NCBI GenBank assembly: GCA_042218075.1
Contig: JBDGRK010000003.1
Location: 50,754 to 114,753, forward strand
Direction: 5' to 3'
DNA: 64,000 bases
From: Candidatus Nanohaloarchaea archaeon
GTDB lineage: Archaea; Nanohalarchaeota; Nanosalinia; Nanosalinales; Nanosalinaceae
The position numbers and the translations under genes are program-made. The stretch's first letter is position 1, and the number at the start of each line of letters is the position of its first letter. The notes under the pieces were generated by a model. The model made no database searches and was not told where the DNA came from. It worked only from the letters and a program-made list of their open reading frames with translations. Below, piece after piece: positions 10,433 through 59,575 of the stretch.

Positions 10433-10433
10433 T

Positions 10434-36429: not shown

Positions 36430-36571
36430 AGCCCCCTCCGAGATTTGAACCCGGGACCTCGTCCTATCCAGATTGTTTCGAAGATCAGAGATCTTCTCAA
36501 GCCACCATCTCTCACATAGTTCGAGAAAGTGGCATTACCAAGGACGCGCTCTACCGCTGAGCCAAGGGGGC
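36430..36571 (-). tRNA. tRNA-Thr(GGT) with 70-nt insertion at position 37/38 (36466..36535)
   Basis: GCCCCCT acceptor, GCTCAGCGGTAGAGC D-arm, CGTCC-TTGGTA^A-GGACG, GGTTCAAATC T-loop. Confidence 0.88.
36478..36533. repeat. Double-hairpin element within tRNA-Thr intron
   Basis: TCGAAGATC-AGA-GATCTTC-TCAA followed by GCCAC...GTGGC. Confidence 0.75.
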
Positions 36572-36627
36572 TTTAATGTGAAGAGTTCCTGTTATTTTCT
36601 TAATAGTTAACTAAGAGTTTTCCGATA

Positions 36628-37149
36628 GTGACAGGTAAAAAAGAATTTGTAGAGGAATTTCTGGAGCGAAACCAAGAAGCTAAATCAATAGGTGACGGCT
36701 ATCTTCACGAAGGAGAAGATATAGTCATCAAAGTTGTGGAACCTGAACGCGTTACAGAGGTTGAGGAAAACTTTTCTGTTTTCAGTAATTTCTGGGACCA
36801 GACCGCCATTTATTCAGTGTGGGAATTTGACGAAGAAGTCTCCGGATATTCTCCTGAAAACTACTTTGTACCGCAGGAAAGGGCGGACAGGGTACTTTCA
36901 ACTTCTGATTTCAATGATCCGGAGATCAGGAAGATGTTGATAGATACAGTAGAAAGTTTTTGCGAAAACAGGCTTGTACTCGATAACTGGATTGACAATT
37001 TTGGAGTTTTCAGGTACAATGGTGATAGAACAGTAAAGTATCTTGATGTTCAGGATATGCAATCAGTTAGACCGTTAAAGGCTACAGGTTATGAAGATCC
37101 CTTTGAACCATTTACCGCCAGGTACTTGAATCAGCCCGCTGACTGCTGA
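36628..37149 (+). CDS. Orphan with possible minimal kinase fold
   Basis: IVIKVV, LDNWIDNFG, KYLD. Confidence 0.5.
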   Translation: MTGKKEFVEEFLERNQEAKSIGDGYLHEGEDIVIKVVEPERVTEVEENFSVFSNFWDQTAIYSVWEFDEEVSGYSPENYFVPQERADRVLSTSDFNDPEIRKMLIDTVESFCENRLVLDNWIDNFGVFRYNGDRTVKYLDVQDMQSVRPLKATGYEDPFEPFTARYLNQPADC

Positions 37150-37157
37150 ATTAAAAT

Positions 37158-37319
37158 TCAACCCGCGAACTCTTCATTCTTCTTCCTGAGGTGTGAGTAA
37201 CCGCATTTCCTGCATGAAGCGTTTTCCGGGTTCTGGGTCCTGTTCCTGGCGTTGCATTTTCTGCACACGTATACATCGCCAAAGATTCTTTCCTTCGCCT
37301 CATCAAAACGCTGTGCCAT
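37158..37319 (-). CDS. rpl40e: 50S ribosomal protein L40e (absent from ORF track)
   Basis: MAQRFDEAKERIFGDVYVCRKCNARN...CRKCGYSHLRKK. Confidence 0.93.
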   Translation of the reverse strand: MAQRFDEAKERIFGDVYVCRKCNARNRTQNPENASCRKCGYSHLRKKNEEFAG

Positions 37320-37384
37320 TTACAATACCTAGGAATAGAAAAGGGCTGTAATTTTAAATAAGCTGGAAGCCGGAGAAACATGTA

Positions 37385-38188
37385 ATGAGTCTGGCCCAGG
37401 CCGTGATTCTCGGAGTTCTGCAGGGAGTTTTCGAGTGGCTTCCGGTTTCCAGTGAGGCAGTGATATCGATAGTTATGACGCAGGTGTTTGGTGCTGGAGT
37501 CACTGAGTCACTGAACTCCGCGATCTGGCTCCACACCGGCACGATGCTAGCGGCTCTTATCTACTTCAGGAAGGACTTCAGTGAGATGCTTGACTTCTCC
37601 TTTGAAAGACTGAAGAACCGGAACTTTGAAATTGAAGAAACGGAGACCGGGAAAGTCTTTGCCTTCCTGCTCGTGGCAACGGTATTTACATCGGCAGTCG
37701 GTGGCGCAATCTATCTTGGAGTCCTGCAGTTTTTGAACTCCCGTCCTGATCTCTTCGCAGGGCTTACAGGGGCGGCTCTGCTCGCGACCGGGCTACTCAG
37801 GTTCTACCAGGGAGGCGATGAACGCAACCCTAAGAACCTCGACCTGATTGACTCTTCCTTAGTCGGAGTTCTGCAGGGAATGGCGGTGATTCCGGGAGTC
37901 TCCAGGTCAGGCTCCACAGTCTTCGGTCTGCTATACAGGAATTTCTCCGGTAGAGAGGCTTTCAGACTTTCCTTCCTGCTGAGCGTTCCTGCGATACTCA
38001 TCGCCAACATCGGGATCAACATCCTGTCCGGATTTACAGCCGGTACCGAGATGATAGTTGCGGCGGGTGTGGCATTTGTAGTAGGCTACCTATCCATTGA
38101 TATAGTTCTGAAAATCGCGGAAAAAACAGCAGTGGCCTACCTGTGCTTTATATTGGCCATGTTCAGTTTTGTTCCAGTTTTTCTCTAG
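37385..38188 (+). CDS. uppP: Undecaprenyl-diphosphate phosphatase (BacA family)
   Basis: QGVFEWLPVSS, LHTGT, PGVSRSGST, SFLLSVP. Confidence 0.93.
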   Translation: MSLAQAVILGVLQGVFEWLPVSSEAVISIVMTQVFGAGVTESLNSAIWLHTGTMLAALIYFRKDFSEMLDFSFERLKNRNFEIEETETGKVFAFLLVATVFTSAVGGAIYLGVLQFLNSRPDLFAGLTGAALLATGLLRFYQGGDERNPKNLDLIDSSLVGVLQGMAVIPGVSRSGSTVFGLLYRNFSGREAFRLSFLLSVPAILIANIGINILSGFTAGTEMIVAAGVAFVVGYLSIDIVLKIAEKTAVAYLCFILAMFSFVPVFL

Positions 38189-38654
38189 GAACTGAATCTA
38201 ATAATCTTCCTATCATCCAGTAATCTTCTACCTTACCTGTCATTCTTCTTCTAGAGGAATCACTGAACCTGTTTTGAGCTAGGTCAATATCTTCCAGGTA
38301 ACCCATTACAGCTCCGTAGGCACTGTTACTTACGGAAAACTGACTATTGCTGACCGCTCTATTTGCAGGAGTTAATTTTGAGCATGCTGTTCTGCATACC
38401 TCCTGATAGTAATTTTCTATCATCGAGACATGGATCTCATCTACCTTCTCATCGGAGTTGACCAGTTCTTCATACTTTTCAAAGGCTTTTCTGATAATTT
38501 CAAGACCTTCTCTACCCCGGTATCGGATATAATCAGTTTCTTCACTGACAAAATTATCTAGACTGTCATGCTCGCTTAAATCGAAGTCAGAAGCTTCGCT
38601 CAGCATGTAAATTAACTCAAGGTCTTTCTCACTTTCTACTTGAACTGAACTCAT
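38163..38654 (-). CDS. Orphan, possible C-terminal winged helix
   Basis: AT-richer acidic ORF convergently overlapping uppP. Confidence 0.55.
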   Translation of the reverse strand: MSSVQVESEKDLELIYMLSEASDFDLSEHDSLDNFVSEETDYIRYRGREGLEIIRKAFEKYEELVNSDEKVDEIHVSMIENYYQEVCRTACSKLTPANRAVSNSQFSVSNSAYGAVMGYLEDIDLAQNRFSDSSRRRMTGKVEDYWMIGRLLDSVPREKLEQN

Positions 38655-38705
38655 ACCGCAGTTTTTAGACCCAAAATTAATAGTATGTTTATCCAAACTC
38701 AAATT

Positions 38706-39266
38706 ATGAGAAAAGTTATTGTCATAGGCGGAGGAGTTTCCGGTCTACAAGCAGGTGTTTTCACGGCAAAAGCCGGCGAAGACACTCTAGTTCTCGATAC
38801 TGACGAGTCACTTGTATTCAACACTTCAAACATCCAGAACCTAATAGGCCACGAGTCAGTATCAGGGCAGGAGCTGATCAGGTCGGGCAGGAACAAGCTG
38901 GAAGAGTTCGATGGAGAATTAAAGGAGGAAAAAGTCGAGAAAGTTGAGAGAACTGATGACGGCTTCAGGATCGAGACCGAAAACGGGGAGCACGAATCCG
39001 AGTACATCATCGTTGCTTCCGCCGGGGAACTGGATTTCCTCGATCCTCTAGAGCTTGAATTCGAGGATGGCGTGGAAGGACCCTACATGATGGAGGAGCA
39101 TATCAGGACCGACGACTCAAATAAAGCAGGAGAGGGAATCTACGCCGCAGGACTCGCCAACTCCTGGGAGTACCAGACCTCCACTGCTATAGGAGACGGG
39201 GCGAAAGCCGCTTTAAACCTGATCTCTGAGATTAATGGAGAACCATATACAGATCACGATACCTGA
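38706..39266 (+). CDS. Short FAD-dependent oxidoreductase (TrxB-like)
   Basis: IGGGVSG, IVASAG, GIYAAG, TAIGDG. Confidence 0.88.
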   Translation: MRKVIVIGGGVSGLQAGVFTAKAGEDTLVLDTDESLVFNTSNIQNLIGHESVSGQELIRSGRNKLEEFDGELKEEKVEKVERTDDGFRIETENGEHESEYIIVASAGELDFLDPLELEFEDGVEGPYMMEEHIRTDDSNKAGEGIYAAGLANSWEYQTSTAIGDGAKAALNLISEINGEPYTDHDT

Positions 39267-39314
39267 GAACTCTACTGTAACAATAAGGTTAATAAGCAAA
39301 TGCGCAGTTAGCCT

Positions 39315-39662
39315 ATAGCCCTACTAGGTTCCATCATAGTGTTCCTGGTCAGCCTGGTTATAGGCTACCTGGGAATCTATACAGGCAGTATGATAGTTGC
39401 TGGAGGCAGTTTCGGGAGAGCTTTTGGAACAGCCTTAATAGGAGCTATTGCCTGGGCTCTTTTGTCATGGATACCTCTGATCGGTTCGGCTCTGGCATTG
39501 ATTGCCTGGGTTACAGTGATCAACATGCGGTACGAGGGAGGATGGATTAATGCGATCCCTATCGAGGCGGTATCCTGGATCGCTACTCTCTTCATACTGT
39601 ACCTTCTGGTGCAGTTTGGAATAGGAGATTTCAATCCGGTAAGTGTGCCGGGCACAACTTGA
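39315..39662 (+). CDS. Small membrane protein (start ATA at 39315 or GTG at 39339)
   Basis: Four TM segments, RYEGGWINA. Confidence 0.65.
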   Translation: MALLGSIIVFLVSLVIGYLGIYTGSMIVAGGSFGRAFGTALIGAIAWALLSWIPLIGSALALIAWVTVINMRYEGGWINAIPIEAVSWIATLFILYLLVQFGIGDFNPVSVPGTT

Positions 39663-39678
39663 ATTACATTATTGTTTC

Positions 39679-40407
39679 TCAGTCGATGTAACTGCTAACA
39701 GTCTTTGCTCCTTCTACCAGCCTGGGCCCCGGACGGTTCAGTAGAGCGTCATCGATCACATGAACATTTTCCTCTTGTACCGCTGTAATTTCACTCCAGT
39801 CATCCCTCTTGAGAACTTCTTCAGGACTCAGGTTGTCTCCGGCACCGCAGACGTTCAGAAAAATGTATTCCGGATCAAACCCCTTCAGCTCTTGGAGATC
39901 AAATTCTCGGCTTCTTCCACCATCGATAAAGTATTCTCCTCCAATATACCTGACAAGATCTGGAATCCAGTTGCCGGAAACCATCGGCGGATCCATCCAC
40001 TCCTCGCAGTAGATCCTGGGACTATCCTTAAGCTCAAACCCTTCCAATTCAGCTTGCATCTCACTTACAACGGCTTCAGCCTCGCTTTCCATACCGATTC
40101 GCTCCCCTATCGAGACAATTGACTTGAAAACCTCCTCAAGACTGTGAGGCTTTACCTGGAACACATCAAAGCCCGTGTCCTCGAGCTTCTCCACCGCTCT
40201 ATCCTGCAGGTCATCCGAGGCCATGATTAAATCAGGTTCAAATTTTTGAATTCGATCGATCTCAGGATTGGTCCAGCCGCCAACCGAGGGCTTTTGCCTC
40301 GCCTCGGTAGGGTGATCACATAGCGAGGTTGTCGCAACGATCCTGTTTGCTGCTCCTATGCTGTACAGAATTTCAGTGTTGGAAGGTGCCAGTGAAACTA
40401 TTCTCAT
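39679..40407 (-). CDS. Cobalamin-binding BtuF-like protein without signal peptide
   Basis: RIVSLAPSNTEIL, CDHP, LNRPGPRLVEG. Confidence 0.85.
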   Translation of the reverse strand: MRIVSLAPSNTEILYSIGAANRIVATTSLCDHPTEARQKPSVGGWTNPEIDRIQKFEPDLIMASDDLQDRAVEKLEDTGFDVFQVKPHSLEEVFKSIVSIGERIGMESEAEAVVSEMQAELEGFELKDSPRIYCEEWMDPPMVSGNWIPDLVRYIGGEYFIDGGRSREFDLQELKGFDPEYIFLNVCGAGDNLSPEEVLKRDDWSEITAVQEENVHVIDDALLNRPGPRLVEGAKTVSSYID

Positions 40408-40413
40408 CTTATA

Positions 40414-40689
40414 TCACCTCTCTAGAGCGGCAATAATTTGCTCTCCATTATTTATTTCGTCCTCAAAGAAAATAAATTCGGCTTCTTTCTCCCCTGGATC
40501 GTATACAAGTCGGCCCATTTTACTCTGTTCAAAGTAAACCTGGATCATGTAGTCCTGGCCCTCAAAAATCTCCCATTCGTCAGCAACTTCTCCAATACTT
40601 TTTCCAGTAGCTTTCGGTGTTGCACCTCCAGTATCGGTTTCCTTGGGAACAATCTCATAGTAGTCGATCTCAAGTGAAGTCGATCCCAT
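40414..40689 (-). CDS. Hypothetical protein
   Basis: Acidic ORF upstream of the BtuF-like gene. Confidence 0.55.
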   Translation of the reverse strand: MGSTSLEIDYYEIVPKETDTGGATPKATGKSIGEVADEWEIFEGQDYMIQVYFEQSKMGRLVYDPGEKEAEFIFFEDEINNGEQIIAALER

Positions 40690-40807
40690 TGATTCCCTGC
40701 ATTTAGTGAGGTAGTCCTCAATATTGTAGATGTAACTAGAAGTCATGAATCCGATTCTCTAAATATTGTGCCGGAAACGTTTTGAATCTGGTGATCACTT
40801 CTAACAC

Positions 40808-41650
40808 ATGACTTTCAGAGTAGGTGCACACGTTTCGATCTCGGGCGGTGTGGAAAAAGCTGTAGATAGACAAAAAGGAGAGAATGGAAACTGTGGACAG
40901 ATATTCGCGGGAAGTCCAAGAACCTGGAGCGTTTCGGAATACACTCAAGAGGATGGAGAAACGTTCCAGGAAGCGAGGCAAAGGGAAGATCAGCACCCAT
41001 ACGTCATACATTCCACCTACCTTGTGAACCTAGCAACTCCAAAGGATGATCTCTTCCAGAAATCGCTGAAATGTCTACAGGCAGAGCTTGAGGCTGCTCG
41101 CAACCTGGGAATAGAGTATGTTGTTTTCCATCCAGGCGCACACACCGGATCGGGCCGGAAGAACGGAATCACGAGGATAGCTGAAGGAATTGATGAACTG
41201 GAAATCCCCGAAGAAGTGACGCTGCTGCTCGAAAATACAGCGGGAAAGGGCACAACCCTTGGAAAGACAATGGGGGAGCTCAGGCAGATGATGGATAAAG
41301 CGGACACAGATGGTGAAAAGCTTGGAGTCTGCATCGATACCTGTCACGCCCACGCAGCGGGTTATGAACTGAGGAAGGAAGAAGGTTTCTCGGATTTCAT
41401 CCAGGAAATGGAGAAAGATCTGGGCATTGATAGAGTAAAAGTAATCCACCTGAACGATTCGAAGGATGAGAAAGGCAGCGAGAAAGACAACCACGAGGAC
41501 ATAGGCCAAGGAAACATAGGTGAAGACGGTTTCAGGAACTTGGTCAATTCATCGGAACTTGAGCAGAAGCCCATGATACTTGAGACCCCACAGGACCACA
41601 GGGAAAGCTACAGGCAGAACGTGGAGAAGATCAGGCAACTGAGAGAATAG
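40808..41650 (+). CDS. nfo: Endonuclease IV
   Basis: GAHVS, FHPG, LENTAG, CIDTCH, HLNDS, ILETP. Confidence 0.97.
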   Translation: MTFRVGAHVSISGGVEKAVDRQKGENGNCGQIFAGSPRTWSVSEYTQEDGETFQEARQREDQHPYVIHSTYLVNLATPKDDLFQKSLKCLQAELEAARNLGIEYVVFHPGAHTGSGRKNGITRIAEGIDELEIPEEVTLLLENTAGKGTTLGKTMGELRQMMDKADTDGEKLGVCIDTCHAHAAGYELRKEEGFSDFIQEMEKDLGIDRVKVIHLNDSKDEKGSEKDNHEDIGQGNIGEDGFRNLVNSSELEQKPMILETPQDHRESYRQNVEKIRQLRE

Positions 41651-41928
41651 TATCTTGATTAACAAGAATCACAGTTTAATTTAAGCGATTTTAAGTCTAA
41701 AAATATTTTAGAAACCGTTATATTTGTTTTAGTGGTTATATTTTTTATACATAGATTTCAATCTGGAGATATGAATCTGATCTACCTGATATCAGTGACT
41801 GCAAAAATTGCAACTATCCTTGGTTTTCTACTAACAGTGGCTCAATTGCAGCGGGCAGTAAATGCCATAAAGAACCAAGACCGAATTAAAGATAGCGAGC
41901 ACTTTACTGTAATAAACAGGTGATTTAG

Positions 41929-42305
41929 GTGGAAGAGCTTGACGTAGCAGAGGGAGGCATCAGAATCTGGCAGCCTATTTCCGAATTATAGGTGATAAGG
42001 AGATATTCAGCAGAACCCTGGAGGAAGGCGCCATAAGTGTTTACGCGGACCACGGAGAGATCATCTTCTCCTACATACACGATCGGTTAGGTAAGAAAGT
42101 CGTGAAAGCGGATTTAAACGAATACGTGGAAGATGAAAAAGGAAGCGTCAGTATGAAAATGAATTGGAGTGTAGAAGAGAACAGTCTGAGAATAGATATA
42201 GACGGTAAAGAGGTGTTTGAAGGCTGCATCTCAGGAGAAAATACCGGAGTAAATGAGAGGCAAAGGGAATCCCGAGCAGAAAAATTCAGTTTTTTCAGTC
42301 TTTGA
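41929..42305 (+). pseudogene. Frameshifted hypothetical gene
   Basis: MEELDVAEGGIRIW (frame A) continues as YFRIIGDKEIFSRTLEEG... in the frame of ORF 42102..42305. Confidence 0.4.
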
Positions 42306-42351
42306 ATATTTGACCGTTCATCTTATTAACAAATGTTACTCAGCATAAGAC

Positions 42352-43281: not shown

Positions 43282-43352
43282 AACTGATACCCGAATTTCG
43301 ATATATAAAGTCGATACATATTGATATCGATTTCTAATTTGAAGTGAAATTT

Positions 43353-43856: not shown

Positions 43857-43859
43857 ATA

Positions 43860-45386: not shown

Positions 45387-45460
45387 GTAATGTGTTTCCA
45401 GGCCTTTTTTAAATAACTAGGCTGCTGGTACCGGATCAGCCTGTTATCCCAAGCTATTTT

Positions 45461-47245: not shown

Positions 47246-47249
47246 TATA

Positions 47250-52783: not shown

Positions 52784-52828
52784 ACCTTCTGAAAGGTTCA
52801 CCATCATAAGCCATGCAAGGCATGGCTT
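52781..52828. repeat. Double hairpin after nrdJ
   Basis: TGAACCTT-CTGA-AAGGTTCA and AAGCCATGC-AAG-GCATGGCTT. Confidence 0.6.
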
Positions 52829-52877
52829 CCAAAATTTTCTCTCTTCTTATTTCTAACTACTATCGAAGAACCTAAAT

Positions 52878-52912
52878 TCCGGTTCAAATCCGGGTCCTGC
52901 CAATTGCATATA
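52878..52912 (+). repeat. tRNA 3'-end-like repeat R1
   Basis: TCCGGTTCAAATCCGGGTCCTGCCA-ATTGCATATA; no tRNA 5' half upstream. Confidence 0.8.
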
Positions 52913-52987
52913 CCTTGATTTTATAGGGTTCCCGAAACTGCCAAGAGATTCCAAAGATATCTAAGTATTTTATATAATAACTATTCT

Positions 52988-53509
52988 ATGCCTGAGAATG
53001 AAATTGAAGCAAAGGTTCTGGACATAGATAGAGAGGAAATTTCTGAAAAAATTGAGGATATAGGTGCAAAAAAGAAATTTGATGCTCAAATGAAGTCCAA
53101 GTTCTTCGACTTTCCAGATGGCTCTATAGAGAATAACGGCATATTAAGATTGAGAGATACGGGTGAAAGAACTTTCATTACTCGCAAGAAAGAGGTGAAA
53201 TTTGACGAAGCGAAGGAAATGGAGGAAATAGAATTTGATGTAAGTTCGAAAGAAGAAGCTGTAAAATTTCTTGAGTCTATTGGACTTGAAATAGTAGCAG
53301 AGAGTCAAAAAAGGAGAACAAAATGGGTTAAAGGAGAAGTTGAATTTGTTATCGACAAACTGCCTGAAATACCGCCATTACTTGAAATAGAGGCCCCAAA
53401 CCGAGAGAAGATGAAAAAGAATTTTGAAAAGCTTGACTTCGAAATGGAAGATACTGTAAACTGGGGAGCAAAGAAAACATTGGACTACTATGGAAAGCTT
53501 GAAGATTAA
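52988..53509 (+). CDS. CYTH-domain (class IV adenylate cyclase-like) protein
   Basis: EIEAK, LRLR, EEIEF, LEIE. Confidence 0.88.
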   Translation: MPENEIEAKVLDIDREEISEKIEDIGAKKKFDAQMKSKFFDFPDGSIENNGILRLRDTGERTFITRKKEVKFDEAKEMEEIEFDVSSKEEAVKFLESIGLEIVAESQKRRTKWVKGEVEFVIDKLPEIPPLLEIEAPNREKMKKNFEKLDFEMEDTVNWGAKKTLDYYGKLED

Positions 53510-53525
53510 TCAGTCTTTCAGTTCT

Positions 53526-53555
53526 TCCGGGTCCTGCCAATTGCATATCTCCACA
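53526..53555 (+). repeat. tRNA 3'-end-like repeat R2
   Basis: TCCGGGTCCTGCCAATTGCATATCTCCACA. Confidence 0.8.
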
Positions 53556-53596
53556 TTTGAAAGGGATACGGGAACTGCTAATTATTGCATCAAAAT

Positions 53597-54076
53597 TCAA
53601 AGCAAACTCGCTAGTTCGGATTGGAAATCTTCATAGGCTTCTTCCAAGTCTTCTCCAGTTCCTTTGTGTTCTGCTTGGCGCCCTATCTGTAGAATATATT
53701 CTCCCTCATTATACTCGGCTAATATGCCTCCAGTAATACGGTCAAAGTATATATCGGTAAGTCCGTCTGCACTATAAACCTTATCTGCAGGTTTTTCTAT
53801 TCCTAAATAATCCGCTCCTGCTCTACCTATTGCTGTGGGGATGCTTGGAGGACCTTCTATTTCATCAGACATCATTCCATGTCTCTTCATCTCTTCATTC
53901 TCTTGCATTGAGTTGCCTTCCGCAACCTTCTCTCCTACCTCAGGATTCTCTCTTCCTATAATATCGCCCTTGTAAAGAGCTATGACAACACCTGGAGGAT
54001 TATTTCTACCTGAAACAAGTGTTAAATCATCCTCCTTCAACGCCTTTTCCACACCTTTCCAACCTTGAGTATTCAT
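53597..54076 (-). CDS. Hypothetical orphan
   Basis: 159-aa ORF between R2 and R3. Confidence 0.65.
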   Translation of the reverse strand: MNTQGWKGVEKALKEDDLTLVSGRNNPPGVVIALYKGDIIGRENPEVGEKVAEGNSMQENEEMKRHGMMSDEIEGPPSIPTAIGRAGADYLGIEKPADKVYSADGLTDIYFDRITGGILAEYNEGEYILQIGRQAEHKGTGEDLEEAYEDFQSELASLL

Positions 54077-54171
54077 AAAAATTCATTCAAAAATTAATTT
54101 TTTATGAGTTTACCATAGTAAAATTATTCCGAATCAATTCCGGAAACTTCCGATTGCATATGACCGAATAT

Positions 54172-54261
54172 CGGTTCAAATCCAGGTCTTCGAAAATCCC
54201 TAGGATTTTCTGTTGTCAAGAAAATCTTTGATTTTCGGACTGCCAATTGCATATCTCCACA
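54172..54261 (+). repeat. tRNA 3'-end-like repeat R3 split by a double-hairpin insertion (54190..54237)
   Basis: CGGTTCAAATCCAGGTC[..]CTGCCAATTGCATATCTCCACA. Confidence 0.75.
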
Positions 54262-54277
54262 ATTGTTAATTTCTCAT

Positions 54278-54781
54278 TTATCGATAAATATTCGGTCCAG
54301 TAAGACATATTGACTTATCATCCGGCGTGGAGGGTAGGAAACAAATATCAAACTGAGTTTTCTCAATTACGAATATATATCGAGTTTGAGGATAGTGTGA
54401 AACATCTCTCGAAGTCCTAAGTATTGTTTCCTCAAAAACCATGTCTTCATTTCCTTCGTACTCCTCCAAAGCTATGAATTCATATTCATTATTATCCTCC
54501 GAATTTAGATCCCTCAGCATGGAATCTATAACTTCTTCCTCAGAATCAAGTTCAACTTCTCCTTTTTTGGTTTCTATAGCCGGATGATCCGGAGTTGCCT
54601 TCCTTTTAACAACCAAGTCTATATCAGAAGGGTTTTCACCTGAAACACTACTTCCTGTAATAAAAATAGGTCCTTGGCCGTATTTTTCGGTATAATTTCT
54701 CTCCAGGTAATTAGTTACATCTTGAAGTAAATCAAATTCGTCTTTTGACAAGGAGAAGTCGTCCTGACAAAAGTCTCTCAT
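54278..54781 (-). CDS. Minimal nucleotidyltransferase-fold protein
   Basis: FITGSSV...SDIDLVV, C-terminal FDICF. Confidence 0.65.
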   Translation of the reverse strand: MRDFCQDDFSLSKDEFDLLQDVTNYLERNYTEKYGQGPIFITGSSVSGENPSDIDLVVKRKATPDHPAIETKKGEVELDSEEEVIDSMLRDLNSEDNNEYEFIALEEYEGNEDMVFEETILRTSRDVSHYPQTRYIFVIEKTQFDICFLPSTPDDKSICLTGPNIYR

Positions 54782-54873
54782 AAATCTTCATACAAACAAA
54801 AAATTGTTTATACATTGTTACTTTACAATAGCTTCTAAGATTGAGTAATCCTCTGATTGAAATACAAAAATTT

Positions 54874-54915
54874 CCCAATTACATATCTATTGATTCCGGT
54901 CCAAATCCAGATCCT
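54874..54915 (+). repeat. Degenerate tRNA 3'-end-like repeat R4
   Basis: CCCAATTACATATCT followed by TTCCGGTCCAAATCCAGATCCT. Confidence 0.55.
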
Positions 54916-54936
54916 TAGATGATTCTTGGAAATTTT

Positions 54937-55257
54937 CTAAATTTCTATATCAGCTACAACCATCAGGTGATCGGAAAGGTTGGACTGGACGAGTTCGGTT
55001 GAGTTGCATTCGATCTCTTCCTGAAGTTTTTTAGCCACCTCATCAAGCGGCTCACCGGAAGAAGATCCAATGTCAAGAACTGTAAACTCTCCACTTTTGT
55101 TTTCCAGCAAATCCCTGAGACCTGTGTAGATCAGGTGATCAACGCTTTCTGGATTCACATACTGATCTCTAGAAGTGGTCATATGAGGATAGATTCCATT
55201 CTCCATTGATTTCCTGAATTCCTCACGATCCATTACTAGATAGTTCTCTGTTGCCAC
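54937..55257 (-). pseudogene. Truncated SAM-methyltransferase-like fragment
   Basis: TVLDIGSSSGE motif I; ORF ends shortly afterwards. Confidence 0.5.
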
Positions 55258-55279
55258 AGATACCTGTTAAACTAAAGAA

Positions 55280-56215
55280 TTAAATTTTCGAAAAAACATC
55301 CATTATCTCTTCACCGTATAACTCTTTCTCTCGCTCATCCATTCCTTTTAGTTCTATTATACCAGCCACCAGTCTCACTAATGTATCGAAGCGGTATAGA
55401 GATTCGTTTTTCTCAAAAGAAGCATCCAGTTCCCTGACCTCGCTGTATCCATTGTAAAGTGCCTCTCTGATGTCCCAGTTCGCGCCGATATCATGCATCC
55501 AGAAACCGTTTGCCGCTTTTACCAGATCTCTCTGGGCGTGACCTGAGTAGACATAATCCCAGTCCAGCACCGCCGTCAGTTCTCCATTTTTGAAGAGAAG
55601 ATTGTCAGGAGTGTAATCGTTGTGCAGCAGAACCGGTGTAAATTCTCTTGGTAAATCATCTCCTCTCTTCTCCACGAACTTTTCAATTGCATCAACAACC
55701 GAATCCATTCTTTCCCGTCGGTAGATTTCCTTCTTCTCCCTCAGCTTCTTCAGAATCCTCTCGCTCAAATCTTCGGAATCCGGAAAACCGTATTCCTTGA
55801 TTCCTTCGTTTTCAAATCCTATCCAGCCGGACGTCTCAAAACTTTTTGAGTTGTGAATTTTAGCAAGATACTTTCCCGCAGTTCTAACGTTTTCCGGTGA
55901 AAGATCGTTCTTCAGGCTTTCACCTTTTATTTCTCTAACTATAATGTAGCTGAAGTCTCCATAATCCTTTATTTCTTCAGTAAATACCTCAGGAACTGGA
56001 ATATCTGAATTCTGGAAATACCTGTAGCAGTTGAGGCAGTGAGAGAGGTCGCTGTTTTCCTCTTCCTCACCGAGAGGCGAAAGCTGGATAATGTAAGAAC
56101 TATCAGCGATGTCAATCCTGAAACTTTTGTGGATCAGACCAGTGCTTATCTCTTCTATACTCTCAGCATGTTCTACTAAGTCTTCATCTAAAATTTCTTT
56201 TATCCTATCTTTCAT
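55280..56215 (-). CDS. APH-family phosphotransferase (paralog of 14708)
   Basis: LLHNDYTPDNLL, VLDWD. Confidence 0.88.
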   Translation of the reverse strand: MKDRIKEILDEDLVEHAESIEEISTGLIHKSFRIDIADSSYIIQLSPLGEEEENSDLSHCLNCYRYFQNSDIPVPEVFTEEIKDYGDFSYIIVREIKGESLKNDLSPENVRTAGKYLAKIHNSKSFETSGWIGFENEGIKEYGFPDSEDLSERILKKLREKKEIYRRERMDSVVDAIEKFVEKRGDDLPREFTPVLLHNDYTPDNLLFKNGELTAVLDWDYVYSGHAQRDLVKAANGFWMHDIGANWDIREALYNGYSEVRELDASFEKNESLYRFDTLVRLVAGIIELKGMDEREKELYGEEIMDVFSKI

Positions 56216-56245
56216 CTGTATAATTTACCTAGAGAATCAATAATT

Positions 56246-56772
56246 TCAAACCCATCTTTCCAGGTCTATAAGTGCCATTGTCATTGCATCATTTATCACC
56301 GTATCTCCACCTTCATCGGTTAGATCTGTTATTTCAGGCAAAACATCTGCGATTACCTCTGCGGAATCAGCTTCATACCTGAAATCTTCCTCATTGCTGA
56401 AAACGCTCACCGTGTAGGATTTATCCGGGAATCTAGGGCTTGAATAATTCCTCCACAGAGCTCCGTAGCTGTCTCCAATATACTTGAGAACATTCAACTC
56501 TGATTCATCGACTTCAGCATTCAGCGGAAGATAATTCTCTCCATCTGGAGAGTAATAGATTGATCCTCTCTCCGGGTAGTGCAGATTGAAAAGTTCTATT
56601 ACTTCCAATCCTGCGGTATCCGTACCGGTGAAAATATTGAAACCTCCGGGTTCAGTGTCTTCTCCCCATTATCCGAGAAATCAGCCACTACGTAGCTTCC
56701 ACGATCGTCATAAAGCCTCTCACATTCATCCAGGTATGTGAATCGATTCTCAATTAATCTTTCAGTACTCAC
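56246..56772 (-). pseudogene. Frameshifted hypothetical gene
   Basis: GTG at 56772 gives MSTERLIENRF...; a frame change near the GGGG run at about 56665 joins the frame of ORF 56246..56608. Confidence 0.5.
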
Positions 56773-56871
56773 ATATACAGATTAGATATAAAATTTATCA
56801 TGCTAGAGCTGCTGGGGATCCTCAAGAATGCAGTTACAATTTTTTATTACTTTAGTCATATAACAATAATT

Positions 56872-57498
56872 ATGGACGGAAAGCCTTTCCCAGATCCTAT
56901 TGTAAAGCAAAATTCTGAACTTCAAAGAACGGAATATGATGAAGAGAAAGGAGTTTACAGGCTCGTTTATCAAGTATCAAAAGACTTAGATCTTGATGAG
57001 AGTGACTTTGATCGTACGGAATCTCTATTTATACCGGACTCTAATCAAATTTTTGTAGAGTTCTCTGATGGCAACCAGGCTGTAAAATATCACTTTCAGG
57101 AGTTCGGGGAAACAAAAACTTGGAATGATCCTGATACAAGAGAAATAGACCTTTTGATCGGATCCTTACATGATATAGCCAGAAGGAGGATGGCTAATGA
57201 TTCTGAAGAGTTCTTCAGTCATAGTGTTGGAGGGCTTGAAGACAGGGAAACAAATGAGAGATATGATCTTATCGAATTGGCAAATTGTACAAATCCAGAG
57301 AATGCAGAAATTATGGATGCAGTTCTTGAAGATGTAATGGAAAGATATGCTGAGAGACTTTCAAAAGAGGTAATAGCCAGAAATTATTCTCCTGAAGATT
57401 CAGGGATTGAAATTAGTGGAGAAAGCGGTAGAGAGTACCATGATTTTTCTTTAGATCCATTTGATGTACCAGATGTTGAAGATAAATGGATTGAATAA
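56872..57498 (+). CDS. Hypothetical orphan
   Basis: Acidic AT-rich ORF. Confidence 0.65.
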   Translation: MDGKPFPDPIVKQNSELQRTEYDEEKGVYRLVYQVSKDLDLDESDFDRTESLFIPDSNQIFVEFSDGNQAVKYHFQEFGETKTWNDPDTREIDLLIGSLHDIARRRMANDSEEFFSHSVGGLEDRETNERYDLIELANCTNPENAEIMDAVLEDVMERYAERLSKEVIARNYSPEDSGIEISGESGREYHDFSLDPFDVPDVEDKWIE

Positions 57499-57651
57499 AT
57501 CCCGATCTTAAAGTATGCTCGAACAGATCTCGCAAGATTGGGAATGCAGTTACAATAAAGCGGATTATTGCCGGATTTTTTTCTCTGATCAATGGATTTG
57601 GGATCATGAAAGACTGACAAAAACTTAAGATTTTATCGGTAAGTAACAATT

Positions 57652-58494
57652 ATGTCTGTCACGGTTGAGTCTTTCAGGGATGAGTTTGAGAAAGTCAAGC
57701 CGGTGCTGATGCAGCTTTTCGATGTTGAATCTGGGAATCTAATATATGAAGAACCTGATATTGAGACACTTGAAGAATTTGATGAGAATCGAGATCCTGA
57801 AGAAGAGAGTGTCGTATTCTATGATGGGAATTCAAACAAATTTGTAGTAAATGAACGGTACGATGAAACTGATTGCTTTATAGAAATAAATGAATCGAAT
57901 ATTAGCTGTGTAGCCGGAGAGGAATGTGTCCACTGGCTGAGACAATCACTTGGAGCAGCTATCAATAAATTCATGGATATTCCCAAACCGAGCAGGATGG
58001 AGATAGTGGAGGGTAAGAATTTATCTGAAGAAAGCATTGAATTGGCGAATAGAATCTATCCGGATAAAAAAGTCTTAACCTATAGTGAATACAAGAGAAC
58101 TATATCTCAGGCCAATACAGAGATTTATATGAAGGGATGTACCGTAGATGAATTCGTTGGCAGGCTTGGTGGAATTGTTGCAGCAGAAGCTTTCGCTGGT
58201 GAAGTTGTGCCGCCGGATTTAGAATCCTGGGATTTAGAAGAATCATCATTTATTAAGTCCCGATCCTGTTCCGAGGTTAGAAGGAAAATGTGGAATGAGA
58301 ACCTTGAAAGATTTCTGGATGAGTTAGACCACTTTTGGGACGAAATTGCCCATTTGGCAGGTTATCGGGCTGCGGATGAAAATTATGAAGACGCAATCGA
58401 TCACAACGGTATTCTCGCTAAATCACCTGTGGATCTCTGGAATGAATACAATCTGTCAAGATACGAGGAAGAAGCAATAAGGGAGTTAAGATAA
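57652..58494 (+). CDS. Orphan with zincin-like EExxH motif
   Basis: VAGEECVHWL followed by VDEFVG. Confidence 0.6.
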   Translation: MSVTVESFRDEFEKVKPVLMQLFDVESGNLIYEEPDIETLEEFDENRDPEEESVVFYDGNSNKFVVNERYDETDCFIEINESNISCVAGEECVHWLRQSLGAAINKFMDIPKPSRMEIVEGKNLSEESIELANRIYPDKKVLTYSEYKRTISQANTEIYMKGCTVDEFVGRLGGIVAAEAFAGEVVPPDLESWDLEESSFIKSRSCSEVRRKMWNENLERFLDELDHFWDEIAHLAGYRAADENYEDAIDHNGILAKSPVDLWNEYNLSRYEEEAIRELR

Positions 58495-58499
58495 ATCAA

Positions 58500-58823
58500 C
58501 TAATAGAGATTGCCTCCAACTGGAACCTCTTGATCAGGCGAAACAAGCACAGGATTTCCGTCCTCGTCAGGAACTCCAAGCGTCAGTACTTCTGACTTGA
58601 AACCCGCGATCCTCACCTCTCCAAGATCCGTTACACAAAGAACTTGTTGCCCCTCAACTTCCTCAACTGTATGATTGTATCCAAGCTGGGCTGCACTCTG
58701 CACCTCTCTATTTCCAAGATCCAGCCATAACTTGAACATCTCCGGTTTTCTTGCCTCCTCGAACTTTGCAGCTCTTTCCACTTTTCCAACCTTTATCTCG
58801 TTTTCAAGTGCCGAATCTGTCAT
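58500..58823 (-). CDS. csaA: CsaA/Trbp111 tRNA-binding protein
   Basis: IKVGKV, SAAQL, IAGFKSEVLTLG. Confidence 0.9.
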   Translation of the reverse strand: MTDSALENEIKVGKVERAAKFEEARKPEMFKLWLDLGNREVQSAAQLGYNHTVEEVEGQQVLCVTDLGEVRIAGFKSEVLTLGVPDEDGNPVLVSPDQEVPVGGNLY

Positions 58824-58874
58824 GAATACTTGAGTGAACCAAAATTTTTTCTATTTAAATCTTAAATATAACTT

Positions 58875-59273
58875 ATGAGCGAAGTAGAGACCGAAAAACG
58901 AATTGAGAACAGTAATTCAATTACTCTGGAGGATTGCGGCAGGTTTCTGGATTACTACAGATTCTATGATCGACTCTCGAGGATATTCGACACAGAGGAA
59001 AAGGAAAGATGCAGCCCGGACTCCCGGAACTACAATGTAAGTCCAGAATATGTTCAAGAATTGCGGAAAAATACCATTGGCAATGATCAAGAACTTGAGG
59101 AACTGATTCCGAAGAATGAGTGCTTTGACATAAACGATTTTAGGAGGGTAAGGAGTTACTGCTGGGAACAGATAGATATAGATTTTAAGAAAGAGAAAGA
59201 ACTCTACAGGAAAATCTCGGGAATTACAGGTTTCTATCGCCACCCCAAGAAAGATGGGGGAACTGGGATTTGA
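58875..59273 (+). CDS. Hypothetical orphan ending inside a tRNA-Trp 3' duplicate
   Basis: Last codons GGTGI* come from the repeat. Confidence 0.55.
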   Translation: MSEVETEKRIENSNSITLEDCGRFLDYYRFYDRLSRIFDTEEKERCSPDSRNYNVSPEYVQELRKNTIGNDQELEELIPKNECFDINDFRRVRSYCWEQIDIDFKKEKELYRKISGITGFYRHPKKDGGTGI

Positions 59274-59277
59274 ACCC
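59255..59277 (-). repeat. 23-bp exact duplicate of tRNA-Trp 3' end
   Basis: TGGGGGAACTGGGATTTGAACCC identical to 59333..59355. Confidence 0.9.
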
Positions 59278-59332
59278 GTCGAAAACTCCCGGAGTTTTCT
59301 CGAGGCTATCAAATCCCGAATAGAGAGAAATT

Positions 59333-59575
59333 TGGGGGAACTGGGATTTGAACCCAGATCGTCGGATATCTCCGATACAGCCAATAAAAGGCCCATATCC
59401 GTGTTCTAATCATCAGGTCGAAGATCAAAGATCTTCTCAAACTGTCACGCTAAGCGAGACAGTATCCTTCATAACTCCAGTACCAAGATCGGTTGCTCTG
59501 CAACCGTTCCGGATCGCGGACTGATCCCTGGCAGTCCCTGGAGTCCGATATGATACCAGGTTACACCATTCCCCC
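59333..59575 (-). tRNA. tRNA-Trp(CCA) with 170-nt intron (59368..59537)
   Basis: GGGGGAA acceptor, TCGGA-CTCCAG^A-TCCGA, BHB with CTCC/GGAG helix, GGTTCAAATCC. Confidence 0.93.
59368..59537 (-). ncRNA. Intron-encoded box C/D guide RNA
   Basis: Guide CTGGAGTT+ATGA targets C34 by the N+5 rule; CTGATGA box; second antisense CGGATAT to U39 region. Confidence 0.65.

Follow-up and report, generated by a model that had tools for sequence, protein, structure and literature searches.

Two tRNA genes of a Candidatus Nanohaloarchaea archaeon (G000; 1.1 Mb, 92% complete) carry almost the same 23-nt hairpin within their introns, which raises the question of whether this sequence is a mobile DNA element or a functional part of the RNA. 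The window analysed here, 64,000 nucleotides of this genome, contains both copies, TCGAAGATCAGAGATCTTCTCAA and TCGAAGATCAAAGATCTTCTCAA (Table 1). They lie on the same strand and are identical at 22 of 23 bases, and a degenerate pattern of the hairpin matched twice in the window where 100 shuffles gave an expectation of 0.00. The original prediction described a REP/MITE-like micro-element that targets tRNA sequences and may give rise to new introns. Every sequence it quoted was found in place, including a second hairpin after each copy on the plus strand (GCCAC..GTGGC in tRNA-Thr), the double hairpin at 54192-54236 and the hairpin behind tRNA-Trp. Both hosts are genuine minus-strand genes by our tRNA calls (Rfam RF00005, and aragorn with introns allowed), tRNA-Thr(GGU) being called by both programs and tRNA-Trp(CCA) by aragorn. 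As an interpretation, the prediction is partly supported: the family, its enrichment at tRNA genes and the turnover of its introns were borne out, while the proposed mechanism fits poorly.

Table 1. Features of the hairpin family and its tRNA hosts in the window
Feature	Position	Strand	Basis
tRNA-Thr(GGU), interrupted after position 37	36430..36571	-	RF00005 49.2 bits, E 1.6e-7, 72-nt insert; aragorn 70-nt intron
tRNA-Thr intron, ~70 nt: 2-3 nt, hairpin 1, UU, GA-hairpin 2-GA, 12-nt tail	36466..36535	-	aragorn boundaries
Thr hairpin 2 with flanks (GA-GAAGAUC-UCU-GAUCUUC-GA), proposed NC helix, putative tandem G.A	36478..36498	-	R1 39.3 bits
Hairpin copy TCGAAGATCAGAGATCTTCTCAA, in tRNA-Thr insertion	36478-36500		
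Thr hairpin 1 (GCCAC...GUGGC, extended), proposed C helix	36501..36533	-	sequence, fold, family covariation
tRNA-Pro 3'-end remnant, then CCAATTG; likely recombination (att) site	52878..52905	+	T-arm census
tRNA-Pro-type 3'-end remnant (CGGTTCAAATCCAGGTC ... CTGCCAATTG), split by two GAAAAUC-type hairpins (54192-54210, 54220-54236)	54172..54249	+	
23-nt duplicate of tRNA-Trp 3' end (GGGUUCAAAUCCCAGUUCCCCCA)	59255..59277	-	sequence comparison
Hairpin GA-GAAAACUC-CGG-GAGUUUUC-GA, in unit behind tRNA-Trp	59279..59301	-	R1 30.6 bits, E 2.6e-5
Spacer GGGAUUUGAUAGCCUC, start is reverse complement of T loop and stem	59302..59317	-	sequence
tRNA-Trp(CCA), 170-nt intron (about 59368-59537)	59333..59575	-	aragorn
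C'-like box UGAUGA, 2 nt past module	59410..59415	-	read from sequence
Trp hairpin 2 with flanks (GA-GAAGAUC-UUU-GAUCUUC-GA)	59418..59438	-	R1 39.2 bits
Hairpin copy TCGAAGATCAAAGATCTTCTCAA, in tRNA-Trp intron	59418-59440		
Trp hairpin 1 (ACUGUCUCGC-UUA-GCGUGACAGU)	59441..59463	-	sequence, fold
Guide CUGGAGU, then U, D'-like box AUGA	59469..59480	-	read from sequence; complementary to anticodon region ACUCCAG

Distribution of the hairpin family

Genome-wide searches with a covariance model, R1, place the hairpins in one family, which is far larger than the copies first noted in the window. R1 was built from G000 copies and is rich in sequence information, so its matches, and alignment A2, lean towards the modelled structure. 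Perfect GAARA..UYUUC hairpins number 40 in G000, compared with 2-9 in each of 10 genomes simulated under a first-order Markov model. The 17 strong copies found by R1 in G000 comprise eight in tRNA introns, two flanking the 16S rRNA (one each in leader and trailer), five beside tRNA ends and two elsewhere. Enrichment at tRNA loci is therefore strong, as had been predicted, but targeting is not confined to tRNAs, since copies also lie in 16S and 23S spacers, RNase P RNA and mRNA leaders. All eight intron copies are at position 37/38 and in sense orientation; with 24 from relatives, 32 of 32 intron copies inside aragorn-predicted tRNAs are sense. Matches are present in 55 of the 70 genomes of a phylum set (labelled G0xx), with 0 to 17 copies per genome, or 1 to 14 among single-contig genomes.

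The 16S leader copy occupies the same place in G008 and G017. A 23S trailer copy is found in G043, and in G038 one is assigned by likeness to the G043 copy rather than by an Rfam check. Euryarchaeal RNase P RNA carries a kink-turn, KT1, at P16/P17 and a double K-turn in P12. Copies of the hairpin occur in the RNase P RNA of G004, G051, G038 and G008 (RF00373, 39.4, 58.8, 43.2 and 28.1 bits, respectively, all under the 84-bit gathering score; those of G004 and G051 align over the full length). In two of these genomes, G038 and G051, the conserved ACAGAAUCGGGCUUAC block directly adjoins the copy on its 3' side. By our reading of the alignments, this would be the P16/P17 region where KT1 of Pyrococcus furiosus binds L7Ae (PMC5499556 and PMC4245976, in excerpt).

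A two-hairpin module and its likely protein partner

On the RNA (minus) strand the hairpin has the sequence YNGA-GAARAUC-UYU-GAUYUUC-GA. It forms the second arm of a two-hairpin RNA module, laid out as a variable hairpin 1, 2-3 nt (usually UUY), GA, hairpin 2 and GA; in the minimum free energy fold of the tRNA-Thr intron, the two form neighbouring hairpins within the anticodon stem. The GA flanks are near-invariant among 53 distinct copies (5' G 50/53, 5' A 53/53, 3' G 51/53, 3' A 53/53), CA or AA replacing the 5' GA in three of the 53 rows, in tRNA-Arg(UCG) and in many intergenic double hairpins. Hairpin 2 opens with the pairs G-C, A-U and A-U, and these first three pairs are constant across the same copies. 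The compensatory changes noticed in the window proved genuine: four of seven stem pairs vary on both sides and none on one side, with pairs 4, 6 and 7 switching by double changes (A-U/G-C 28/24; U-A/C-G/G-C 38/13/2). In all, 47 cells are double-sided and none one-sided, and the observed score was reached in none of 500 shuffles. Stem length (6-10 bp) and loop length (3-11 nt) differ among copies, with compensatory change, whereas the GA flanks are fixed. Covarying stems between near-invariant GA flanks are the signature of a selected RNA structure. Hairpin 1 covaries as well: among 14 family members, double-sided changes affect nine of ten pairs, and pairing holds in 79.7% of cells, a share that sliding the partner lowers to 53.8% or less. 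Of 48 copies, 23 have a helix of 5 bp or more that ends 2-3 nt before the GA; shuffling the upstream sequence gives an expectation of about 12.

On balance, we propose from these sequence patterns that the module is probably an RNA-level protein site of the kink-turn or k-junction type, with L7Ae as its likeliest partner. In a standard kink-turn, G.A and A.G pairs come after a 3-nt bulge (PMC5061560, in excerpt); in a k-junction, the non-bulged strand bears an additional helix (PMC10573300, in excerpt). The two GA dinucleotides would form tandem sheared G.A/A.G pairs, with hairpin 1 as the C helix and hairpin 2 as the NC helix of the kink. The RNA chain would enter and leave on the non-bulged strand, as in a k-junction (PMC10573300, same excerpt), with the central helix of the bulge-helix-bulge splicing motif, or whatever helix hosts the module, as third helix. 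Like L7Ae-bound kink-turns and k-junctions, the module has a short linker, GA, a stacked helix and GA on the return strand, and as in kink-turns the helix adjoining the GA pairs is loop-capped. The module is carried by RNAs that the tRNA-splicing endonuclease cuts (tRNA introns and 16S/23S spacers) and by RNase P RNA, and any benefit might lie in helping excised or precursor RNA to fold or assemble, or in protecting it. The RNase P RNA copy in the KT1 region, a likeness to Pyrococcus (PMC5499556, in excerpt), suggests a link between the module and L7Ae. Single genes for L7Ae and for EndA (204-aa frame, alpha4-size) are present in G000.

The module is not a simple kink-turn, since its non-bulged strand is discontinuous. 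Also against the kink-turn reading, closing the last A-U/G.U pair of hairpin 1, which forms in 13 of 13 sequences, leaves a linker of 2 nt before the 5' GA, where the standard bulge has 3 nt. The Watson-Crick G-C pair adjoining the G.A pairs, the 5' CA/AA variants and the RNase P matches under the gathering score also count against the kink-turn reading. The kink-turn of U4 snRNA likewise has a Watson-Crick G-C next to its G.A pairs. The putative kink-turn differs from known ones in that its linker is 2-3 nt rather than strictly 3, its C helix is itself a hairpin, its first NC pairs are invariant as well as Watson-Crick, and it is repeated as a cassette in many introns and spacers.

The intron of euryarchaeal pre-tRNA-Trp holds a box C/D guide RNA. 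The tRNA-Trp intron of G000 keeps a guide of this kind, with D'-like AUGA and C'-like UGAUGA boxes, named as in the euryarchaeal tRNA-Trp intron, and a further guide-like stretch with complementarity to the 3' anticodon stem. The UGGAGU..UGA stretch and the GAUGA of the C'-like box are conserved in five of five aligned introns, and the exons in five relatives. The euryarchaeal box C/D guide thus provides a precedent for L7Ae binding to a tRNA intron. Unlike in the euryarchaeal guide, the D'-C' linker in G000, G006 and G016 is not short and holds the whole two-hairpin module, which also fills introns of tRNAs without box C/D features.

Copies beside duplicated tRNA ends

A protein site alone explains neither the copies at duplicated tRNA ends nor the duplications of 10-26 nt found around some copies. 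In a census of tRNA 3' tags, the 13-nt 3' tag of tRNA-Trp (T-stem 3' strand to discriminator) recurs 65 nt after its first copy, and units of hairpin plus duplicated tRNA end are conserved. Together, the spacer GGGAUUUGAUAGCCUC and the duplicated T arm fold into a long hairpin (-27 kcal/mol), and this spacer is also found behind tRNA-Ala(CGC) in G000 and behind tRNAs in G025, G011, G013 and G014.

For these remnant copies only, it is possible, though we judge it rather unlikely, that they are attachment-site arms of tyrosine-recombinase integrative elements targeting tRNA 3' ends, their link to tRNA fragments being a by-product of integration. Four tyrosine-recombinase matches were found in G000, three of which pass the Pfam cut-off. 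One of the four follows tRNA-Asn at a distance of about 500 nt, and another, on contig C37, is preceded by tRNA-Pro(UGG), a Pro remnant and a hairpin. Apart from the two Pro genes, four further places carry the tRNA-Pro 3' end followed by CCAATTG. In contigs of runs X1 and X2, which come from two studies, 54161 is joined back to 52878 and 52904-53540 is skipped, suggesting that the 1.3-kb segment lying between two Pro remnants exists in circular or tandem form. The split remnant of this pair matches R1 weakly (19.4 bits), its flanks read CA..GA on the strand opposite the tRNA remnant, and it has a homologue at G000:C26:3740-3900. Where copies lie upstream of a tRNA 5' end they are antisense and once more adjoin acceptor sequence, as expected if DNA sequence were recognised, and the model of Sugahara et al. 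2012 ties integration to tRNA fragments and intron gain (PMC3293823, in excerpt). Against such arms, the gap between tRNA and duplicate is only 40-65 nt and so holds no element. It is 63-65 nt in four of six cases, and the spacer is 82-91% identical across tRNAs and families, neither of which random decay of elements would give; further, each duplicate bears the acceptor sequence of its own tRNA.

In Caldiarchaeum, tRNA-Thr(GGU) genes are disrupted by integrating elements (PMC3293823, in excerpt). Intron heterogeneity in this tRNA, and tRNA fragments and recombinase genes near tRNA genes, are shared with our genomes, but the fragments here are 3'-terminal 23-mers 63-65 nt behind an intact gene, separated from it by a conserved hairpin spacer with no element in between.

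Intron turnover and possible mobility

Introns holding the module come and go quickly between close relatives, in agreement with the predicted turnover. tRNA-Thr(GGU) occurs with a module intron, with other introns or without one, four states being found within one genus; empty alleles are present in five of 12 genomes, among them a congener. The module alone is present or absent within otherwise orthologous introns of tRNA-Trp (present in three of six genomes: G000, G006 and G016) and tRNA-Met (present in G014, G008 and G042, absent in G000). Hairpins of the Trp hairpin 1 type occupy the same place in the tRNA-Met introns of G014 and G008. Highly similar introns also occur in non-cognate tRNAs, one type starting AACCUCAAG in Pro, Arg, Glu, Gln, Lys and Gly and a second starting ACACCGGCUUCUC in Thr, Met, Ala, Arg and Ser. 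However, several host introns are common to families of the order and can be aligned at about 75% identity; descent is the simplest explanation. Many copies are then old rather than recent insertions, and the module introns are an old family, often lost, replaced or regained.

These states, and the variable copy number, would suit a selfish or semi-selfish two-hairpin cassette that copies into structured RNAs or their genes, founding a new tRNA intron where the site can form a splicing motif and entering existing introns, rRNA spacers, RNase P RNA, mRNA leaders and tRNA-end remnants. Direct duplications flank some copies (one of 10 nt brackets the D-loop intron of tRNA-Leu(CAA), G038 and G008 show lengths of 11-12 nt and 26 nt, and those at tRNA 3' ends measure 23 nt), and non-functional tRNA-end remnants are split by hairpins at several positions. 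Such mobility seems to us unlikely. The full cassette is never identical between two G000 copies, hairpin 1 differing in every one; the shared introns point to descent; a PF01797 search found no Y1 transposase in G000; the duplication lengths match no single known transposition chemistry; and alike intron heads could reflect splicing-motif constraint. Mobility is compatible with the kink-turn reading, as the kink-turn could be the cassette's own maintenance device.

A review names tRNA intron transposition in Thermoproteales (PMC4090602, in excerpt). The likeness is that closely similar introns occur in non-cognate tRNAs and that related genomes differ strongly in intron content. As differences, the introns here are long (57-226 nt, credible predictions), mostly at the canonical 37/38 position and built around a structured module that also occurs outside tRNA genes, in a DPANN phylum with an alpha4-size EndA.

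It is improbable that the module is another RNA-level signal, such as a processing or decay determinant or a site for a protein other than L7Ae that marks endonuclease-released spacer and intron RNA. The contexts are the same (introns, rRNA spacers and tRNA trailers), the UCU/UUU loop is conserved and UUCGA recurs on both sides although a kink-turn alone requires neither, and the linker is 2 nt, not 3; but the GA/GA signature suits kink-turns best, and presence in mature RNase P RNA at the Pyrococcus kink-turn site argues against a decay mark (PMC5499556, in excerpt). Very improbable is the originally proposed DNA hairpin of REP/RAYT or IS200/IS605 type, moved as single-stranded DNA by a Y1 HUH transposase: short, imperfect near-palindromes with conserved flanking bases, about 35 copies above chance and intergenic copies, some paired, recall such ends, but the Y1_Tnp search with no match in G000 (92% complete) was positive in six of 14 control genomes, intron copies invariably follow transcription, the stems covary as RNA, and copies sit within functional RNAs, those in RNase P RNA and rRNA spacers being at conserved positions.

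Genus g28 gave no R1 matches in its three genomes. In the two whose 16S leader was read, a hairpin is kept at that place with both G.A pairs changed to Watson-Crick pairs (UGGAAAG..CUUUCCA).

Two tRNA introns and the module they share

The tRNA-Thr(GGU) and tRNA-Trp(CCA) genes of the window are otherwise complete and are interrupted at 37/38, as is characteristic of archaeal introns. On the RNA strand the two introns share the element UUGA-GAAGAUC-UYU-GAUCUUC-GA. All sequences quoted in the original prediction were found in place, and the 23-nt hairpin pattern occurs twice in the window against 0.00 occurrences expected. The second hairpin described as following the shared element is present, but on the RNA strand it precedes it. 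Among the data sets listed as containing this DNA, the best is a salt-lake metagenome and none is RNA. Contigs from sequencing run X2 span 58539-59739 with three differing letters and no gaps, a result that concerns the DNA and says nothing on expression.

The consensus of 53 distinct aligned copies is (C/G)GG-UUY-GA-GAARAUC-UCU-GAUYUUC-GA-C. Its GA dinucleotides, which flank the second hairpin of the RNA strand (hairpin 2), are near-invariant (5' G 50/53, 5' A 53/53, 3' G 51/53, 3' A 53/53). The first three pairs of the hairpin 2 stem are invariant among the 53 rows, and the outer pairs show double changes only (47 cells double-sided, 0 one-sided), with a covariation score reached by none of 500 shuffles; since the rows were fitted to R1, a covariance model of the hairpin family, the alignment leans towards the structure. 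A further helix is always present upstream, and this hairpin 1 covaries at nine of ten pairs in a MAFFT alignment of 14 copies, in a register that was set by hand and then tested, an automatic column-pair search having given a poor hairpin 1. RNAalifold, run on 14 module-bearing sequences, predicted hairpin 2 only and missed hairpin 1. The best helix upstream of the GA ends 2 nt before it in 16 of 48 copies and 3 nt before it in seven; the linker is 2 nt if a terminal A-U/G.U pair forms (13/13 sequences) and 3 nt if that pair is open. Because hairpin 1 covaries and ends 2-3 nt before the GA, we define the module as a pair of neighbouring hairpins, with UUY-GA linking them and a GA that closes the unit, which is just how the Thr and Trp introns fold.

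In simple introns the module nearly fills the intron, with 2-3 nt before hairpin 1 and a 7-8-nt tail after the 3' GA. By eye, this tail is pairable with the anticodon loop, for example as GAAG/CUUC in Arg and Gly introns, and such pairing can give the putative central helix of the splicing motif. In a bulge-helix-bulge motif, two 3-nt bulges stand on either side of a 4-bp helix. The tRNA-Thr splice site, also read by eye, allows only a weak central helix, UUGG/CUGG, made of three G.U pairs and one G-C, which does not appear in the minimum-free-energy fold; introns of relatives have clearer 4-bp central helices by the same reading. The junction in intron-less tRNA-Thr(GGU) orthologues lies exactly at 37/38. 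A single EndA splicing endonuclease gene is encoded in G000, the genome of the window (PF01974, 94.6 bits).

Distribution and turnover of module-bearing introns

The G000 assembly comprises 1.10 Mb in 40 contigs and is 92% complete; the window covers 50754-114753 of its contig C23. R1, built from a seed of 12 copies and used with a cut-off of E <= 1e-3, gave 17 matches in G000, five of them outside the seed. Eight lie in 37/38 tRNA introns, all in sense orientation. One copy is found ~60 nt before the 5' end of 16S rRNA and another ~85 nt after its 3' end, five adjoin tRNA ends (see table) and two lie elsewhere. Since introns total only a few kb of the 2.2-Mb search space (both strands), the family is enriched at tRNA introns several hundred-fold in G000, in line with the tRNA association first predicted. 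Perfect GAARA..UYUUC hairpins number 40 in G000 against 2-9 in simulated genomes. Besides Thr and Trp, the genes whose introns visibly contain the hairpin are tRNA-Leu(GAG), Asn, Pro(UGG), Ala(GGC), Ala(CGC) and one Ser gene missed by ARAGORN, and weaker forms occur in introns of Arg(UCG), Ser(GGA), Glu and Ser(CGA).

Recognition of these genes depends on the search mode. At its default settings ARAGORN reported no tRNA for the window, and intron mode was needed; with introns allowed it called 37 tRNAs in G000, 27 with introns. Several calls are spurious or mislabelled (a 2339-nt 'intron'; a Pro-cgg within coding sequence), for which reason the isotypes were verified by inspection. Intron mode missed tRNA-Leu(CAA) and two Ser genes. 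Since several genes are overlooked or misnamed by standard finders, the number of tRNAs counted in such small genomes cannot be relied on. The tRNA-Leu(CAA) gene has an extra D-loop intron flanked by a 10-nt repeat (GUGGCCAAAG/GUGGUCAAAG), and the two missed Ser-type genes have identical 3' halves and a ~90-nt insertion after the D arm. The 16S gene contains a group I intron near its 3' end (RF00028, 57.9 bits); its last exon ends in ..GGATCACCTCC, ~85 nt before the trailer hairpin.

Coordinates and contexts of features in the window, elsewhere in G000 and in relatives (C, contig; L, locus)
Feature	Location	Strand	Remarks
tRNA-Thr(GGU)	window 36430-36571	minus	~70-nt intron after position 37; Rfam 49.2 bits; ARAGORN
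tRNA-Trp(CCA)	window 59333-59575	minus	170-nt intron; ARAGORN
tRNA-end copy	window 59279-59301	minus	behind tRNA-Trp
tRNA-end copy			behind tRNA-Leu(CAA)
tRNA-end copy			in remnant array behind a Ser gene
tRNA-end copy			adjoining Pro remnant and recombinase gene
tRNA-end copy		antisense	just upstream of the Ser gene
Segment between tRNA-Pro-type remnants	window 52878-54249		CYTH-domain gene at 52988-53509
tRNA genes missed by ARAGORN	G000:C19 ~2380-2606; G000:C10 ~87783-88009; G000:C20 to ~12867	+
Group I intron in 16S	G000:C28 ~10301-11087 (L068:602-1388)	minus
GGUUACGCUC intron family	G000:C15:64976-65299; G000:C36:129140-129402
L7Ae gene	G000:C15 61936-62211	+
Hairpin in L7Ae leader	G000:C15 ~61855-61890
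tRNA-Gly-type 3' remnants	G000:C3:2500-2650 and 3680-3820
GAAAAYC hairpin pairs	G000:C33:1-60; C21:1-60; C26:2000-2050; C20:3700-3730; C11:18995-19050
Module in mRNA leader (L091)	G038:C1:236223-236755
Module between direct repeats (L097)	G008:C15:19108-19640

R1 matched 48 of the 61 order members sampled and 55 of the 70 genomes in the whole phylum set, at 0 to 17 copies per genome, G000 being the richest. Contexts in relatives were assigned for the best match in each of 29 other genomes. Nineteen of these lie inside tRNA introns (18 within a same-strand ARAGORN tRNA, one by eye), with Thr, Met, Ser, Ala, Leu, Arg, Gly, Gln and Cys as hosts; two lie in RNase P RNA, one behind 23S rRNA, three antisense just upstream of a tRNA, one in a tRNA-remnant array and three in contexts not assigned. 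A second set of twenty further loci from five genomes contained eight intron copies (six in ARAGORN tRNAs with a same-strand hairpin, one by model match only, one by eye), two copies in RNase P RNA, two in 16S leaders that match the G000 leader copy in position, one in a 23S trailer assigned only by likeness to the trailer of relative G043, two in mRNA leaders, three in other contexts (loci L095, L096 and L097) and further copies in tRNA leaders and trailers; a pattern search of locus L109 found no hairpin. The full module at L091 stands ~20 nt before a start codon, and the first 79 residues of the gene that follows resemble, by eye, ribosomal protein L18e. At L097 a module copy lies between 26-nt direct repeats (TGATTAAGAAGACGGATGAGCGATAG) with box C/D-like words.

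Genus g17 has no copies, and genus g28 gave no R1 match in its three genomes, an absence that, as in all R1-negative genomes, holds only at the sensitivity of this sequence-rich model. The two g28 16S leaders that were read retain a hairpin at the same place, with both G.A pairs now Watson-Crick. No GA..GA was found in the 16S leaders of the R1-negative genomes G046, G053, G020, G023 and G022. A related-locus search with a window protein returned one unrelated bacterial contig only.

The tRNA-Thr(GGU) gene was compared in 12 genomes. Empty alleles exist: the gene is intron-less in five genomes, carries a module intron in four (G000, G011, G014 and, from another family, G030) and an unrelated intron in three, and four states occur among four members of one genus. 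The tRNA-Trp intron has the module in three of six genomes, at the same site; a search for tRNA-Trp loci of the same genus gave no match at E 1e-5. In tRNA-Met the module is present in G014, G008 and G042 and absent in G000, and the module-bearing intron of tRNA-Gln(UUG) in G002, G008 and G017 is missing from G000. Similar introns were also found in non-cognate tRNAs. Because states differ among the Thr, Trp, Met and Gln orthologues and across non-cognate tRNAs, introns and module are often gained, lost or replaced, and these comparisons bear out the idea of intron turnover raised in the original prediction. Several host introns are common to different families, which suggests that they are old. 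The same tRNA gene with a module intron, another intron or none among congeners affords a rare view of turnover, and intron families recognisable by sequence provide a handle on the gain, loss and replacement of archaeal tRNA introns. A second intron family, marked by GGUUACGCUC, comprises long introns in tRNA-Ala(CGC) and tRNA-Thr(CGU) of G000 and occurs also in tRNA-Thr(GGU) of G001 (L005) and G010 (L012).

The accessible text of one preprint still describes the manner of arrival of archaeal tRNA introns as open (bioRxiv 10.64898/2026.10.13.758758). For nanohaloarchaea, one paper counts 15 intron-bearing genes among the 39 tRNA genes of one genome and four among the 38 of a second (PMC10266531, accessible sections). 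This count was the only remark on nanohaloarchaeal tRNA introns found in the literature on nanohaloarchaeal/DPANN tRNA introns and archaeal K-turn/L7Ae introns, and no description of the module was found there.

A kink-turn-like reading and its alternatives

On balance, we lean towards reading the module as a conserved kink-turn or k-junction-like RNA element, probably one that binds L7Ae. L7Ae is known to bind kink-turns of ribosomes, of box C/D and H/ACA RNAs, of RNase P RNA and of a single tRNA intron, that of tRNA-Trp. The signature of a kink-turn combines a short linker and tandem GA/GA with a helix that stacks on the latter (PMC5061560, in the part available), and the module matches it, with hairpin 1 as the proposed C helix and hairpin 2 as the proposed NC helix; the tandem G.A/A.G is present at the level of sequence only, in the GA/GA flanks of the 53 rows. 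The non-bulged strand is discontinuous, since after the 3' GA it runs into the intron tail or host RNA and the C-helix partner strand is located 5' of hairpin 1, for which reason we do not class the module as a simple k-turn. With chain entry and exit both on the non-bulged strand, its topology fits that of a k-junction (as defined in the available part of PMC10573300); the putative third helix, between tail and anticodon loop, is read by eye. Against a kink-turn stand the linker, which may be 2 nt and not the standard 3 nt, a Watson-Crick pair next to the G.A pairs, and family members with CA or AA at the 5' side.

In euryarchaea the box C/D RNA of the tRNA-Trp intron already binds L7Ae. In the tRNA-Trp intron of G000 the D' guide, D' box and C' box were read directly and are conserved in five of five aligned introns, and the guide of the D'-like box is complementary to the anticodon. 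The module is located between the D'-like and C'-like boxes; no terminal C and D boxes were identified in the direct reading and the five aligned introns.

The strongest link of the module to L7Ae, an indirect one, would be its position in RNase P RNA. R1 matches lie inside RNase P RNA in G004 (of the same genus as G000), G051, G038 and G008, which score 39.4, 58.8, 43.2 and 28.1 bits against RF00373, all below the 84-bit gathering score; conserved regions aligned in all four and the full length in two. In G038 and G051 the module match lies directly 5' of the ACAGAAUCGGGCUUAC block, the neighbourhood of which we take to be the P16/P17 region. In Pyrococcus furiosus RNase P RNA, KT1 at P16/P17 binds L7Ae (accessible portions of PMC5499556 and PMC4245976). 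Neither RF00373 nor blastn with a congener's gene found an RNase P RNA in the G000 assembly, so the argument rests on the relatives. If the phylum builds most long tRNA introns and rRNA spacers around one kink-turn-like cassette, this would be a new use of the motif, pointing to L7Ae, or another binder, in the handling of RNAs that the splicing endonuclease cuts. A single L7Ae gene is present in G000, and its leader contains a small hairpin, CCUUGAUGAUCAAGG, the loop of which is of the UGAUGA type; the hairpin is not of R1 type and may be a kink-loop for autoregulation.

A bolder and rather doubtful proposal is that the module is a mobile 'kink-turn cassette', founding new tRNA introns wherever a splicing motif can form, colonising other RNAs and kept via L7Ae binding. 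Its hosts would be existing introns, rRNA spacers, RNase P RNA, mRNA leaders and att-like tRNA-end fragments, and the proposal is kept alive by the 10-26-nt duplications that flank some copies outside the tRNA-end units. Were it true, the phylum would show intron gain in progress, and the question of how archaeal tRNA introns arrive would become directly testable.

The mechanism originally put forward, a REP/RAYT or IS200/IS605 hairpin element, is very unlikely. The Y1 HUH transposase that it implies gave no PF01797 match in G000, 92% complete, with a control search positive for six of the 14 known genomes used; each of the 32 intron copies that lie in a predicted tRNA is sense; copies occupy conserved positions in functional RNAs, within RNase P RNA and rRNA spacers; and stem and loop lengths vary with compensatory change. 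Of the first interpretation, intron turnover is thus supported and the REP/MITE mechanism unlikely. A palindromic DNA operator bound by a transcription factor was rejected because the half-site distance varies (stems 6-10 bp, loops 3-11 nt), with compensation.

tRNA-end units and neighbouring elements

Behind six G000 tRNA genes the 3' end of the respective gene is repeated, at a distance of 63-65 nt in four cases. The unit consists of a T/C-rich stretch, GGAUUUGAUAGCC, a GA-type hairpin and the last ~23 nt of the host tRNA, and the start of GGAUUUGAUAGCC is the reverse complement of the T loop. Units also lie behind tRNAs in G005, G008, G011, G013, G014, G025 and G029, sometimes in tandem, and the spacer-hairpin stretches in G011, G013, G014 and G025 are 82-91% identical to the G000 tRNA-Trp unit. 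The latter folds as a single long irregular hairpin, and no bulge-helix-bulge that would splice out one unit behind tRNA-Trp could be drawn by eye. Elsewhere, tRNA-Pro, Gly and Ser 3' remnants are split by hairpins within the T loop or acceptor strand. The motif cgttacgctgagttgg, the same as the marker of the second intron family, recurs in remnant arrays behind tRNAs.

An attachment-site origin of the tRNA-end units is plausible. Tyrosine-recombinase genes lie near two or three tRNAs, adjoining tRNA-Asn and a hairpin-bearing tRNA-Pro remnant. However, the interval from repeat to repeat is only 40-65 nt at tRNA-Trp, Ala and Ser, and such an origin leaves these uniform, conserved spacers unexplained. 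A MITE with terminal inverted repeats GGGATTTGA/TCAAATCCC was rejected, as the 10-23-nt duplications are not directly adjacent to these repeats. Within the window, contigs of sequencing runs X1 and X2, which belong to two studies, lead from 54161 back to 52878 and leave out 52904-53540. Circular, tandem or deleted forms of the segment between the two tRNA-Pro-type remnants (see table) thus appear to exist.

Two tRNA-Gly-type 3' remnants, each with a two-hairpin insertion inside the T loop, lie on G000:C3, a 5-kb contig of low GC (0.40) that may be a mobile-element contig. Finally, GAAAAYC-type hairpin pairs that are not flanked by GA..GA directly adjoin start codons, on the opposite strand as read. 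Two of them sit at contig ends, so these pairs may break the assembly.
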